This document shows, one piece after another, positions 58,253 to 63,920 of a stretch of DNA of 64,000 nt. Below the pieces are notes generated by a model. The model saw nothing but the letters and a program-made list of their open reading frames with translations, was not told the origin of the DNA and searched no databases. Source of the stretch: an uncultured Verrucomicrobiae bacterium (GTDB taxonomy: Bacteria; Verrucomicrobiota; Verrucomicrobiia; Limisphaerales; JAFGQR01). The stretch covers positions 236,917-300,916 of the forward strand of contig CAWBHS010000049.1 of NCBI GenBank assembly GCA_963788655.1, read 5' to 3'. Position numbers and translations under genes: made by a program. Numbering within the stretch: the stretch's first letter is position 1; the number at the start of each line of letters is the position of its first letter.

Positions 58253-58366
58253 CAGTCGGTAGAGCGAAGGGCTGCCCCGCCTGGCAGCGAGAGCACTTGG
58301 TTCTTTGGATGTTCACTTCACCGTCAAGCGGGCGCTGCCGGCAGCCCTCGCTCACCTCGGCGTTAG
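58246..58366 (+). other. attC9; R' interrupted after GTTAG by a group II intron
   Basis: GCATAAC…gagcgaagggctgcc/ggcagccctcgctc…GTTAG|; the CC resumes at 59184. Confidence 0.88.
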
Positions 58367-59183
58367 TTGTGACATGAAGTCGCATTCATCACTGCTGAGC
58401 ATGGGCAACCTGACTCAGTCCTGCCTTTCGCGGCAGGTATTCCAGGGAAGCATGCGTTGGACGGGCGGCCGCAAGGCTACTGTCCAGGGTGTGAAGCCTT
58501 CCCGACAATGTAGCCAGCCTGGGAGCCTCAATCCGGGTGCGGCGCTAGAATTGGATGGTAGGGTCAACCCACGTGAACACTCGCAAGCATCGTCAGAGGA
58601 ACGAGCCATACGAGGCTGTTTTAAGGCTCCGGCCAAAAGAAGGCCAGCGGTCAAGTTCGGGCTGTCTAACGTAGCCCGACGCGAATGGCGCACCGCCGGT
58701 GTAGAGAGTGGACCTAACCCATCCTGTGGAGAATGCGGAACATGGAAAAGCTGCCAGTTCCCGCCTGGAGAGTATCCAGGCAAGCCGACCGCAAGGCAGG
58801 CCCAGGGGAGGCAGCATGAAGAGGATCGAACAAGCCAAGGCCGGTCGGTAATGGACCGGATATGCCCACGTCGATCTGGTGTCTCCTGGCAAGAAAATCA
58901 GCGGAACCCCTTCAAGCGAGAGAAGCATAGGACGAGCGACGCCCGTCGCTTGGTGCCTCTCGGTGCTGCGGCCCAAAGGAGCCGAGCGCGATATGGCCGC
59001 CGACCGGTATTGCCAAGTGGGATTGGGAAGGTCCATGACGCCTTTGGGTGTCACCGGCCTCCTGGTTACGCGGGTCCCCCGCATCCGGGGTGGCCTTGGA
59101 GAGGCTTGAGCCGTGATGAAGGGAAACTTTCAAGTCCGGTTCTTAGGGGGGCGTGGGCGGGTGACCGCCTACGCCTACCCGGT
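58367..59183 (+). mobile_element. ORF-less group II intron (IIB/chloroplast-like), 817 nt
   Basis: Domain V gagccgtgatgaagggaaactttcaagtccggttc (59108-59142, AGC triad); domain VI ending cctacccggt; 5' end TTGTGACATGAAG; EBS1 CTAACG (58666-58671) and EBS2 CGAGG (58611-58615) complement the 5' exon; no RT motifs. Confidence 0.9.
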
Positions 59184-59242
59184 CCCGTGCGTGCGAACGT
59201 CGCGGGCGAGTCGAACGCGCAACCACAACGAAAGGTCAACAC

Positions 59243-61640
59243 ATGAAAACGAAAACCCAAACAGCGACTCGAATCGCAACCGTCCTCAGCGGACTTTTGT
59301 CCCTGGGTCTGCTCTTGCCTCACTCCACGCTCGGTCAAGACATCCCTCCTTTGATCATTGTCACGAACACCGGCACGTTACCGACCAACGCCGTGGAGAT
59401 GCCGGCCCCGACACCAGCGCCATCCCCGTTTCCACCGGTGCTGCCGAACTCCCCTGCGCCGACGACCAACTTCCCAGGGCTGGATGACAACAACTTCACT
59501 TGGCCTCCTGACACCGACGGGTGCGTTGGCCCCAGCAACGTGGTCACCATGCTCAATACCCAGGTGCGCATTCAAGACCGCAGCGGGAACACTATCAGCA
59601 CCACTTCCTTGTTAAGCTGGTGGCAAAGCCGGATTTCCGGCCTCAGCGTTGTCTTTGACCCGCGCATTCTGTACGACCCTTACAGCCAACGATGGGTCGC
59701 AACGGCGACCGCAAACCCGTACACTGGTTCTGCGATTCTCATTGCCGTTTCCACAAACAGCAACCCCTCCGGAGGCTGGTACGCCTACGGGTGGTACGTG
59801 GACACGAGCGGTTACTCTTGGGCTGACTTCCCGACGCCCGGCTTCAACCGGGACAAAATTGCCATTTCCTGGAACTATTTCCCGATTTACGTCGGAGGAG
59901 CCGACGGGGTCGGGCTGTTCGTCTTGAACAAGACGAACGTCTATGCCGGTGGCTCAGTGACCCCGCAGTCGTTCTACCAACCGTATCGGTCGGGAACCAC
60001 GACCAACGGCTATAACCTCAGACCGGCGGTCACGTACGACACGAACGACGCCACGTTGTATCTGCTCCAGGATTTCCAGGACAATCCCACCAACTCAAGC
60101 TTACTGGCCCTCTACACCATCACCGGCAGCGCCGGCTCGGCCACGCTTGCACGCTCCACCAATTTCCCCAGCGCACCCGCTTGGGCCAGCGCCGGACCGA
60201 ACAACGGCAACATCGCGCCCCAACTCGGCCAGCCGGATGTACCGGCCATCAACACGGTGGACTCGCGCTTGAGCCAGGTCGTCTATCGAAACGGCTCGCT
60301 CTGGTGTGCGCACACTATTTTTCTCCCCGCAAACAACCCAACGCGCTGCGCTGTGCAGTGGTGGCAAATCGGCACGAATGGCAATGTTCTTCAGAATGGG
60401 CGGCTGGACGATTCGAGCGGCGCGACGATGTATGCATTCCCAAGCATTGCGGTGAACCGATTCGGGGACGCGCTCATCGGTTACTCCCGTTTTGGGACGA
60501 ATCAATATGCCAGTGCCAACTATTCCTTACATGCGCTCAACGAGCCGATGGGAACGCTCGAACCGGATTATCTCTACAGGGCGGGACAGTCGTCGTATTG
60601 GAAATCTCTCTTAGATTCCCTCGGCAGAAACCGGTGGGGCGATTACAGCATGACGTGGGTGGACCCGGTGAACGACGCGGATTTTTGGACCATTCAGGAA
60701 TATGCGGCGCAGTATTCGGGAACCCTGACGAATGGTTCAGGACGGTGGGGCGTCTGGTGGGCCAACGTACGGGTGCCGATTCCCACGAACGACCTTTTTG
60801 CCAATGCCATCGTCGTCAGCGGTTCACAAGGCACGACCAACGGCACCGACCTGCGCGCCTCAAAGGAGTCCGGCGAAGCGAATCACGCCGGAAATGCCGG
60901 TGGCGCATCCGTCTCGTACAATTGGACGGCCCCTGCCAGCGGGAGTGTGACGATTGACACATTGGGAAGCAGCTTCAATACGCTGCTGGCCGTCTATGCG
61001 GGCTCCAGCGTTGGAAGCCTGACGACCGTTGGCAGCGACAACGGTTCCCTGGGCAACGGGGCCAGCCGAGTAATTTTCACGGCCACAGGCGGGACGACCT
61101 ACCGCATCGCGGTGGACGGCAACAACGGCGCTATGGGCAACGTGGTTCTGAATTGGCTTCAGCCCGCGGCGCCGGTCTTTACGACCCAGCCGCAGAGCCA
61201 GACGGTTTACCAAGGCCAGAACGTCACGTTCGCGGCCAGCGCCATCGGCACGCCAACGCCGACGTTACCAGTGGGAGTTTAACGCTGCGAACATCAGCGG
61301 GGCCACAAGTTCCAGTTACACCATCACGGGCGTTCAGACCAACAACGCCGGAAACTACGCCGTCGTCGCCACGAATTCGTCCGGCTCAGTCAGCAGCGCG
61401 GTCGCGGTCTTGACGGTGCTGACCAGCCAAGCCACGCTCAGTTCCGCAACCTACAGCAACAGCCAGTTCCGCCTGACAGTTGGCCAGGTCTCGAATTTCA
61501 CTTGACTCATCCAAGAAAACACGAACTTGAGTACCACGAACTGGATTGCATTGGTCACAAACGTTGCGCCCTTTACGTTCACCGATTCTTCCGCTTCCAA
61601 CTACCCAAGCCGATTCTATCGCGCTCTGTACAAACCGTAA
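59243..61640 (+). CDS. Cassette 10 gene 1: large secreted protein with an Ig-like domain, frameshifted near 61265
   Basis: Signal peptide; PPDTDGCVGP, FDPRILYD, NRWGDYS, NDLFANA…DTLGSSFNTLLAVY, PVFTTQPQSQTV; ends …RFYRALYKP. Confidence 0.8.
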
Positions 61641-61665
61641 CCCAAACCTCAACCAGAAAGAACGT

Positions 61666-62198: not shown

Positions 62199-62322
62199 CA
62201 AGGTCACTGGAGCGAACAGCCGCCCCGCCTCGCAGTTCGAGAGTCACGGGCTTCGGCGACGCGCTCTGGTTGTCGAGCGTCACGGACGTTATCACGGCGG
62301 GGCGGCTGTCGCTCAGTTCATC
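62193..62322 (+). other. attC10, left part; its R' (GTTAGCA) is displaced to 63819-63825 by IS110
   Basis: GGCTAAC…gagcgaacagccgccccgcc/ggcggggcggctgtcgctc…agttcatc|. Confidence 0.85.
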
Positions 62323-63655
62323 TCTGAGGTGAACGGTCAACGGGTTTTTCATTTTTTCTTCGCCCGCTGGGCGGCCTTTTTCTTGCGGCTGGTATAGGGA
62401 TTTTTGCCTAACTCAATCTGATCGAACAATCCCACGATCGGGCTGCCGTGGCGCCGCAGGGCTTCGGCATAACGCGCCTCCTCATAGACCTCCTGGCGCT
62501 GCCAGCAGCGCCAGATCACCGCTGCCACTTAAACGCCAAAGCCCGCACCGCCGTGTGATGGTTCGCGCCCGCTTCCCGTTGCTGCAGATAATACGCCGCC
62601 GCCCACCGGCTCCACAGCACGCTCTCCCGCAAACTCGTGAAAGCTCTGCCGGTGAAACTTCGGACAGCAGTAGCGCCGATGAATGTAACAACTGCCGCCG
62701 CTCCGCTTGGTCACCGGCGCCACGCCCGTGTAGCGCTGAAGTTGCGCGGCCGATGGCAAAGCGCTCCCGAGCTGCCCATCGTCAGCAACCGCGGCCCAGC
62801 ACCGGTCCCGCCCCGGGAAAGCTCGCGAAGATGCCCAGTCCGGATGCGCCGGTATGCCGCGGCGATCTGCCGGTCTCCGTGAATGGCCGGTGGAGCAGTT
62901 GCAGTTGCCGGGCGATCAGTTGCACCCGCAGCGCGAAGGTTTCAACCAGGGCGGTTTCCTCCGTCACCGCCATCGCCTGGCTAAGCATTGGAGCCGTTGC
63001 TCCTGCAGCGTAGCGCTGTGGGAATGTGCTGGCGGTAGAATTGTATGAGGGTCGCCGGTTCGACTTTTTTGCTCGCCGCAAGGTCGGCCATTTTAGCAGC
63101 AATTCCGTGGCCATGGGCCGCCACAGTTCCTCGCCCGAAAGCACGAACGCCTGCGGAAAATAAGCCTTTAACAGGGCGTTCAGCCGGTTGGTCAACCCGG
63201 TGCGTTCGTCCACCACCGCGCGGCGATGAGTGACCGCTTGTTGCAGGGGGCGCGTGGCGCTGTCCTCGGGCGCCCACACGGTGAGCTTGTCGTGATGAGT
63301 CAGGAGTAGTTCAGCTAAATAATCGGCATCCTTGGTGTCGTCCTTGGCGCGACTGGTGACAAAGGCTTCCCGGAAGTTCTTCAGCGTGACCGGGTTGATG
63401 GCGTAGAGGGTGATCCAGGTATAGCTTTCCAGGAACGCGACCAGATTGGCGGCGGGTTGTTCCAGGCAGATCGCGACCCGGGCCTGGGGATGTTGCTGGC
63501 GCAATTGGGCCAGCCAGTCCTGGAGCGCTTCGGGGCGGTGGCGATGGTTTGGTTGGTGCGGCCGTTGGATGCCCGTCAAGGGTGTGCAGATCGGCCTTTG
63601 CGTCGGAGCGGTCCAGGCCGATGACCAGGTCGTAGGGAAATCGGTTCATCGTCAT
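62318..63655 (-). CDS. IS110 DEDD recombinase/transposase, multiple frameshifts
   Basis: VIGLD, ICLEQP, AKDDTKDA, FPGAGPVLG, YTGVAPVTKRSG; ends …VDRSPQR* with the TGA overlapping the target site. Confidence 0.88.
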
Positions 63656-63818
63656 CTTTCATGGTTTTGGTGGTGTGGTCTCCCGCAGGCTTGACCCGGC
63701 GACGGCAATATAGAAGAGTTGTCATGCAATAGAGAACGCCCTCTTGAGTAGTCGTTAGAGGTGCGAGCCCGCCCGGCGGGCCGGTCGATAAAGCTCAAAG
63801 TCGTTGAGGCGACAGATC
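62323..63818 (-). mobile_element. IS110-family insertion sequence inside attC10
   Basis: Junctions ttcATC|tctgag and gacagATC|gttagca; removing it restores gctcagttcatcGTTAGCA; no terminal inverted repeats. Confidence 0.85.
63656..63815 (-). ncRNA. Putative IS110 bridge RNA
   Basis: Long non-coding end upstream of the recombinase; contains CTAACGA (63758-63752) complementary to the target TCGTTAG. Confidence 0.5.
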
Positions 63819-63920
63819 GTTAGCAGACCTGGCCCGCGGAGGCGGGAAAGCCGGATACCCTACGGTACCAATTCAACGGATGCGAATAAGTATGAATCAT
63901 CGTGATCATGTCGGACAGCG

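Follow-up and report, generated by a model that had tools for sequence, protein, structure and literature searches.

The stretch of DNA analysed here, called the window, comprises 64,000 nucleotides (nt) of contig CAWBHS010000049.1 (GenBank assembly GCA_963788655.1) from an uncultured Verrucomicrobiae bacterium. It holds an integron in which two consecutive attC sites, attC9 and attC10, are occupied by mobile elements, the former by a group II intron and the latter by an insertion sequence (IS) of the IS110 type. The window is a chromosomal segment with a GC content of 59-62%, and the closest relatives of its IS transposase bear Verrucomicrobiota names. A preliminary description of this DNA had proposed that an RNA-guided intron and an IS110 element sit in consecutive attC sites flanking cassette 10, and this arrangement is borne out by matches to Rfam and Pfam families, by an attC model and by the predicted guides of both elements.

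The integron is headed by its integrase gene:

51445..52398, minus strand: intI pseudogene (TIGR02249, PF13495) with a lone in-frame TAG at 51967-51969

The gene is full length save for that single stop and, with the TAG read as X, its product matches TIGR02249 with 352 bits (cut-off 265) and PF13495 as well. Plus-strand cassettes begin at approximately 52950, next to the minus-strand integrase gene, and at least 10 attC sites were found on the plus strand of the window; an integrase adjoining an attC array identifies the locus as an integron. Nine of the sites align, sharing a conserved R'' box (...AAC), paired L'' and L' boxes and an R' box of the form CGTT(A/C/G)G, with compensatory changes at 10 of the 13 predicted pairs. 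A covariance model trained on these nine window sites recovered all of them and in addition matched a tenth site, at 62190-62329, that had no part in the training (51.3 bits, E 1.4e-8). Sites attC2 (53944-54072) and attC6 (57164-57292) are nearly identical, and attC3 and attC9 represent a second subtype. The intI gene, several cassette genes (by frameshifts or stops) and the IS transposase gene are broken, while the backbone genes are unaffected, with unbroken open reading frames (ORFs) of 1535, 1432, 852 and 824 amino acids. The integron looks like a decaying, fossil-like array.

The ninth site is interrupted by the intron, whose features are as follows (EBS and IBS denote exon- and intron-binding sites):

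58243..58366, plus strand: part of attC9 preceding the intron (aligned with the other attC sites, with compensatory pairs; attC model, 110.4 bits)
58367..59183, plus strand: ORF-less group II intron of 817 nt (RF02012, RF00029 and fold), with ends 5'-UUGUG...GGU-3'
58611..58615, plus strand: candidate EBS2, CGAGG, occurring once in the intron and complementing exon positions -12 to -8
58666..58671, plus strand: candidate EBS1, CUAACG, in a hairpin loop and mostly unpaired in the ensemble
59108..59180, plus strand: domains 5 and 6, from the RF00029 alignment, with the AGC triad in domain 5 and a bulged A at 59177

Domain 1 is represented by RF02012 at 58419-58544 (63.2 bits, gathering score 34) and domains 5 and 6 by RF00029 at 59106-59183 (49.6 bits, gathering score 40), both on the plus strand; in the RF00029 alignment the end of the model falls on 59183. 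The 817 nt fold into a multi-branched structure that none of 20 shuffled sequences equalled (z = -5.0). The R' core CGTTAG of attC9 (58361-58366) lies directly 5' of the intron and the CC that follows the intron completes the R' box, so that the exons joined after removal of 58367-59183 read GTTAG + CC, or GTTAGCC, the R' box of attC2 and attC7. A 5' end at 58369 was rejected, as it would leave GTTAGTT, a form absent from the other eight attC sites. No intron-encoded reverse transcriptase is indicated, judging by size: within 817 nt the ribozyme domains leave no space for one, and we therefore describe the intron as ORF-less. A plus-strand ORF at 58305-59246 spans the intron, and further ORFs lie inside it. 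When the intron was compared with plasmids by blastn, the matches were confined to domains 5-6 of unrelated introns.

The preliminary description had pointed to CUAACG as an EBS1 complementary to the attC core, and the complementarity holds: the hexamer at 58666-58671 is the sole 6-nt complement, within the intron, of the last six exon bases (CGTTAG, 58361-58366), and the EBS1-IBS1 pairing at the 5' junction would comprise 6 bp lengthened by one G-U pair. Since any given hexamer is expected by chance approximately 0.2 times in 817 nt, the match is moderate evidence, and we regard this assignment as plausible. The intron is on the plus strand, like the cassette ORFs and the top strands of the attC sites, and is not a group IIC-attC intron, for those insert antisense in the bottom strand. 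It sits 3 nt beyond the IntI crossover point in the sense of the cassettes and, given that orientation, could splice from an array transcript if a maturase were supplied, rather than block the array.

Two kinds of known intron offer a comparison. UHB.I2 is described as a group IIB1 (CL1) intron of a soda-lake integron (Sonbol and Siam 2021; PMC7923331). In that account it resembles the window intron in its insertion right after attC, its cassette-sense orientation and its non-consensus ends, 5'-UUGCG...GU-3' in UHB.I2 and 5'-UUGUG...GU-3' here. By the same description, which is the basis of the comparison, UHB.I2 differs in encoding its own protein and in residing in another host phylum, whereas the window intron is ORF-less. 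The group IIC-attC introns (S.ma.I2 and others) are likewise reported to seek attC and to use a short EBS1-IBS1 pairing beside the attC hairpin, but are described as inserting in the bottom strand, antisense, near the attC 5' end, and as carrying a protein gene (PMC3001079). The window intron is on the top strand, in sense, at the R' end, ORF-less and of group IIB size.

Downstream of the intron lie the cassette and the interrupted attC site:

59243..61640, plus strand: cassette 10 gene A, secreted protein (ORF list; weak PPC and Ig-like Pfam matches)
61667..62120, plus strand: cassette 10 gene B, small secreted protein, frameshifted (ORF list; weak CHRD match)
62190..62323, plus strand: 5' part of attC10 (R'', L'', loop and L'; attC model), ending in the putative core CT at 62322-62323

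The numbering of cassette 10 and its size of two genes and some 3 kb agree with the preliminary description, the model having matched the tenth attC and the cassette measuring approximately 3.1 kb. Gene A has a frameshift near 61265 and is interrupted in frame by TGA at 61504-61506. Both relatives of the IS and unoccupied attC sites led to the assignment of CT as the core. The R' half of attC10 lies past base 64000, as the IS extends to the last base of the window; it is parted from the remainder of the site by 1.7 kb of IS.

The IS itself is annotated on the minus strand:

62324..64000, minus strand: IS110-type insertion sequence, with termini taken from 26-30 relatives and a left terminus within 1 nt of the window end
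62349..63658, minus strand: transposase pseudogene with approximately eight frame changes (Pfam; three-frame translations against intact relatives)

Its relatives are 79 loci, 1.06 Mb in total, collected in a genome scan with the protein family of the IS transposase. Homology to some 30 Verrucomicrobiota loci passes position 63812 and continues to the window end, and each of the 26 aligned sequences (the window and 25 relatives) has the segment 63813-63824, together with a further 190 nt or so beyond it, in conserved form. Pairs of copies from the same genome (L024/L056, L001/L011 and L009/L010) are 97-99% alike for approximately 155-160 nt further out and then diverge; in such copies the shared sequence begins at the left terminus and runs inward. 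All relatives have in common a left terminus (A)TATAGG..., with which the reverse complement of the window starts, and a right end ...CCTCAG. An IS of approximately 1.5 kb that ends at 63812, with CT as its core, was considered and is overturned by this homology and by the termini of the relatives.

PF01548 (E 3e-22) and PF02371 (E 1e-5) match in different minus-strand frames, giving the DEDD and Transposase_20 domains of an IS110-family enzyme. The count of some eight frame changes was obtained by reading the three frames against intact relatives of 433-445 amino acids, and tblastn with an intact relative did not place the frameshifts one by one; the transposase gene in the window is dead. 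For its closest intact relative (P0002) the match to NF033542, 'IS110 family RNA-guided transposase', reaches 163 bits (cut-off 140). The protein has 2104 homologues, typically of 433 amino acids, and a tblastn search of plasmids returned relatives of at most 41% identity. Non-coding sequence amounts to approximately 345 nt upstream of the transposase gene and approximately 25 nt downstream, from the stop codon to the right end. This long upstream region, in place of the downstream guide RNA of the attC-seeking IS1111 members, and the transposase length of 433-445 amino acids make the element one of IS110 rather than IS1111 type, following the typing given in PMC11187229. Rfam gave no family in the IS region, and a miRNA-like match there is a chance one.

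A consensus fold built from 26 of these non-coding regions yields a predicted bridge RNA with three parts:

63773..63839, minus strand: loop A, the putative target-binding loop (consensus fold with compensatory pairs)
63688..63770, minus strand: loop B, the putative donor-binding loop (consensus fold; complementarity to the IS ends)
63915..63988, minus strand: hairpin conserved among relatives, at the extreme 5' end of the IS non-coding sequence (5 compensated pairs)

Folded by itself, the 181-nt stretch preceding the transposase gene did not outperform shuffled sequence (z = -0.35); the structure emerged from the alignment. Loop A has a long closing stem with three compensated pairs and contains a 5' guide at 63813-63824, a distal hairpin at 63800-63813 and a 3' guide at 63787-63798. 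Its 5' strand is GCUAACGNCCAG and its 3' strand UUGAGCUUAUC, the former equalling the left-flank sequence of the relatives plus the core; the loop thus has one side matching the left target and one matching the right, as in IS110 elements. Both guides of loop A would pair with target DNA. For the 3' guide, covariation with the right junction is observed: GAGC accompanies AGCT, GAGU accompanies AACT (L008, L014, L056) and GACC accompanies AGGT (L020, L026, L043). Watson-Crick pairs over the 15 distinct guide-junction combinations number 85, while 10000 permutations averaged 78.0 (P = 0.0009). The copies L024 and L056, which share a genome, have an identical guide and a different junction base, from which it follows that this base belongs to the target. 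L067 is one of the poorer guide-junction fits.

Loop B has a 9-bp closing stem, and on its 3' strand 63706-63713 complements the left terminus of the IS exactly over 7-8 nt; the 5' strand shows no more than a resemblance to the right end, with an indel, and the IS ends are nearly invariant. The second copy of the motif, CUAACGA at 63752-63758, falls in loop B or its stem. It was this copy that the preliminary description took for the IS guide; a CUAACG that complements the attC core does exist, at 63818-63823 in the 5' guide of loop A, and the copy singled out earlier belongs to the donor side. Between the 63915-63988 hairpin and the two guide loops lies a variable stretch of approximately 70 nt, and we know of no description of IS621-type bridge RNAs with such a 5' hairpin.

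The flanks of the relatives disclose what this lineage targets. Counted by eye, AACG stands within 16 nt of the left terminus in 26 of 28 relatives (18 CTAACG, 3 CGAACG, 3 CCAACG and 2 TCAACG); the two exceptions, L007 and L024, are not inserted in attC sites. The right flanks run on as attC bottom strand to the complement of R''. Applied to the relatives, the attC model gave 76 matches in 36 loci, every one opposite in strand to the transposase gene, and 12 of the 30 visible right ends abut such a match in one fixed register; the remaining 18 resemble attC types beyond the reach of the model, are cut by contig ends or lie in non-attC sites. A motif search for empty sites returned mostly noise, with approximately five informative attC-like sites; these, which include attC3 and attC9 of the window, mostly show AACG, 5 nt and GTGAGC, and two have 6 nt. 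Occupied sites take the form AACG-NCC-A(A/G) / IS / AG-GTGAGC. The insertion therefore falls in the interval from L' to R', at a distance of 5 nt from the AACG that complements R', and not near the attC 5' end as in the IS1111-attC group. A two-base core on both sides, AG in the sense of the IS and CT on the attC top strand, would account for these junctions and gives the IS110 pattern of left target, core, IS, core and right target. The attC3/attC9 subtype (...GCTCAC-CT-...) is an almost perfect match to the target of the IS, yet attC3 stands unoccupied and attC9 has the intron in place of the IS.

That attC-seeking IS1111 members are RNA-guided was shown in 2024, with seekRNAs reported for ISKpn4 and ISPst6 (PMC11187229). 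The IS1111-attC group (ISPa21, ISPst6, ISKpn4 and ISPa25) is described there as having, like the window IS, a DEDD transposase, RNA-guided targeting of attC and an orientation antisense to the cassettes. It is also described as having its guide RNA downstream of a gene for a transposase of 330-350 amino acids (PMC11187229) and as inserting near the attC 5' end (PMC3001079), whereas here the guide region is upstream, the transposases of the relatives have 433-445 amino acids and the IS enters attC at its 3' end, between L' and R'. The closer parallel is with the IS621 bridge RNA and the ISEc21 seekRNA, which are reported to come from an upstream non-coding region, to present two stem-enclosed loops for target and IS ends, to place the guide that pairs with the bottom strand first in each loop and to use a two-base core that is CT on one strand (PMC11208160, PMC11187229). 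The loop layout fits the four published guides, left and right for target and donor with the core in each pairing (PMC11208160), and the guide order fits the IS110-type seekRNA, bottom-strand match first (PMC11187229). Compared with these elements as they are described, the window IS has a much longer non-coding region (approximately 345 nt) with an extra conserved 5' hairpin, targets a structured recombination site and ends in short imperfect inverted repeats.

Taken together, we consider it likely that two RNA-guided elements independently invaded attC sites of a decaying integron, each reading the R' arm on the top strand. The candidate EBS1 of the intron and the left-target guide of the IS are the same RNA hexamer, CUAACG, and it is plausible that both would pair with CGTTAG of the R' top strand; with EBS2 and the remainder of the guide included, the predicted footprints of intron and IS guide would overlap by approximately 11-12 nt (...CT-NGG-CGTTAG). 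We propose that attC9 received a group II intron of IIB size and without an ORF by reverse splicing immediately behind CGTTAG, in the sense of the cassettes, the target being recognized through EBS1 (CUAACG) and perhaps EBS2 (CGAGG), with a maturase/reverse transcriptase presumably supplied in trans. A bridge RNA would have directed the IS110-type element to a position between L' and R' of attC10, in antisense to the cassettes; in this RNA the 5' guide, GCUAACGNCCAG, would carry the left target and the core, the 3' guide would pair with the right target (GTGAGCT-like) and the second loop would match the IS's own ends.

Several points weigh against this proposal. The intron ends, UUGUG...GGU, deviate from the GUGYG...AY consensus. 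Relatives of the intron, sought by blastn and nhmmer elsewhere in the window and in the 79 loci, were not found, and its ends are placed by structure, by the restored R' box and by the UHB.I2 precedent. The EBS2 candidate is partly paired in the minimum-free-energy fold and is weak. On the side of the IS, the first variable base of the 5' guide agrees with the flank in just 17 of 26 relatives, as judged by eye; the window copy pairs worse than its relatives, with 4 of 8 Watson-Crick pairs at the right junction, and its left flank lies outside the window. A junction promoter that might form when the ends are joined, with TTGACG from the right end and TATAGG from the left, would have a spacing of merely 13-14 nt. 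Finally, local assembly errors could explain part of the frameshifts, but the intact backbone ORFs argue otherwise.

The preliminary description had a different anatomy, in which the IS ends near 63812, the stretch 63815-63825 is the right half of attC10, the guide is CUAACGA at 63752-63758, and cassette 10 is bracketed within the window between a modified left site and a split right site. The intron in attC9 and the 5' part of attC10 are real. The stretch does resemble the end of an R' box (GATCGTTAGC), with a short ORF beginning soon after, but its conservation along with the 190 nt or so beyond it in 26 of 26 aligned sequences, which come from different genomes, marks the supposed right half as internal to the IS. 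Copies within one genome remain alike up to the terminus some 160 nt further out, genuine R' complements adjoin that outer terminus in 26 of 28 relatives, and the proposed guide lies in a loop whose other side matches the IS left end; such an anatomy is now very hard to credit. Another route to attC9 would have the intron find attC chiefly by the upstream DNA hairpin, in the manner of group IIC, with the EBS1 match secondary or coincidental, and this we judge unlikely. Class C ribozymes are roughly 400-450 nt long, a size that 817 nt without an ORF far exceeds, and the 6-bp EBS1-IBS1 pairing with its G-U pair falls exactly at the junction. Yet the intron does stand immediately 3' of the attC top-strand hairpin, and a role for the hairpin has been suggested in the account of UHB.I2 (PMC7923331). 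The three other window attC sites with CGTTAG are unoccupied and are uninformative as to hairpin or EBS1.

There is also the question of whether the two insertions belong together. The preliminary description saw attC as a shared safe harbour, with both insertions kept to fix a useful two-gene cassette in place, reversibly in the case of the IS, or to tune its expression. Both elements do target the same attC arm, and an IS that parts R' from the rest of the site should, from what is established of attC recombination, prevent the site from folding for IntI. However, the stop in intI, the approximately eight frame changes of the dead transposase gene and the damage to both cassette genes mean that any such locking is without present function, and the intron, 3 nt past the crossover point and in sense, need block neither excision nor expression; we hold this idea to be quite improbable. 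Nor was a second case met with: 17 Verrucomicrobiota loci totalling 270 kb gave no group II intron at Rfam gathering scores, and a single-sequence model of domains 5-6, a narrow one by which divergent introns could be missed, placed no intron in any attC array among the 79 loci, so that within this limited sample the co-occurrence is a one-off, an outcome that the preliminary description had itself named as counting against its idea. By our own estimate the probability of two elements falling next to each other among approximately 11 sites is roughly 0.2, which is not improbable. The adjacency of intron and IS is most likely coincidence, both elements preferring the same conserved arm and insertions persisting where the array no longer turns over.

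As reconstructed by our preferred reading, the locus itself is a fossil, in which nothing suggests regulation or protection of the bracketed cassette, and the convergence, once corrected, is of modest interest; of greater value is the IS lineage that came to light along with it. The convergence of introns and IS elements on attC was remarked in 2010 (PMC3001079), and the window extends this known pairing to other lineages, another phylum and the other end of attC. The literature that we covered, which was incomplete and did not extend to ISfinder, held no lineage of IS110 type with an upstream guide that targets the R' end of attC, and no Verrucomicrobiota examples. It is possible, and we offer it tentatively, that the attC R'-L' arm is an RNA-readable address learned independently by at least two unrelated elements, through the same hexamer and on the same strand. 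The IS would then represent a large, apparently undescribed Verrucomicrobiota lineage of IS110 type, with a bridge RNA whose natural programming is directed to attC, at the end opposite to that used by the IS1111-attC group, and would have spawned transposase-less, guide-only copies. If so, the lineage would offer a natural system for studying bridge recombination into structured sites prone to becoming single-stranded, and would act widely as a brake on the turnover of cassettes in environmental integrons. Its dozens of insertions with guide-target covariation form a natural data set on how an IS110-type bridge RNA addresses a recombination site.

Some further observations concern the IS and its relatives. 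Short terminal inverted repeats are usually a trait of IS1111 rather than IS110 elements; the window IS has an imperfect short one, AGGTNATCCG, at its ends (62324-62345 and 63985-64000), 3-4 nt from each tip. The sole other match to the model of domains 5-6 is in an acidobacterial locus (L057:9634-10708), where a fragment of these domains (RF00029, 52.7 bits) directly adjoins a 5'-truncated IS110 transposase gene, outside attC. Genes for tRNAs occur within a few kb of IS copies at L001:5140-5212, L002:6441-6511, L022:7470-7543 and L024:4532-4603. L001 also contains, at 5951-8950, three more copies of the IS left end and guide region that have no transposase gene. An attC R' complement precedes each of them, they share a common right end unlike that of the IS, and one is internally deleted; these copies may be non-autonomous derivatives that keep the bridge RNA alone.

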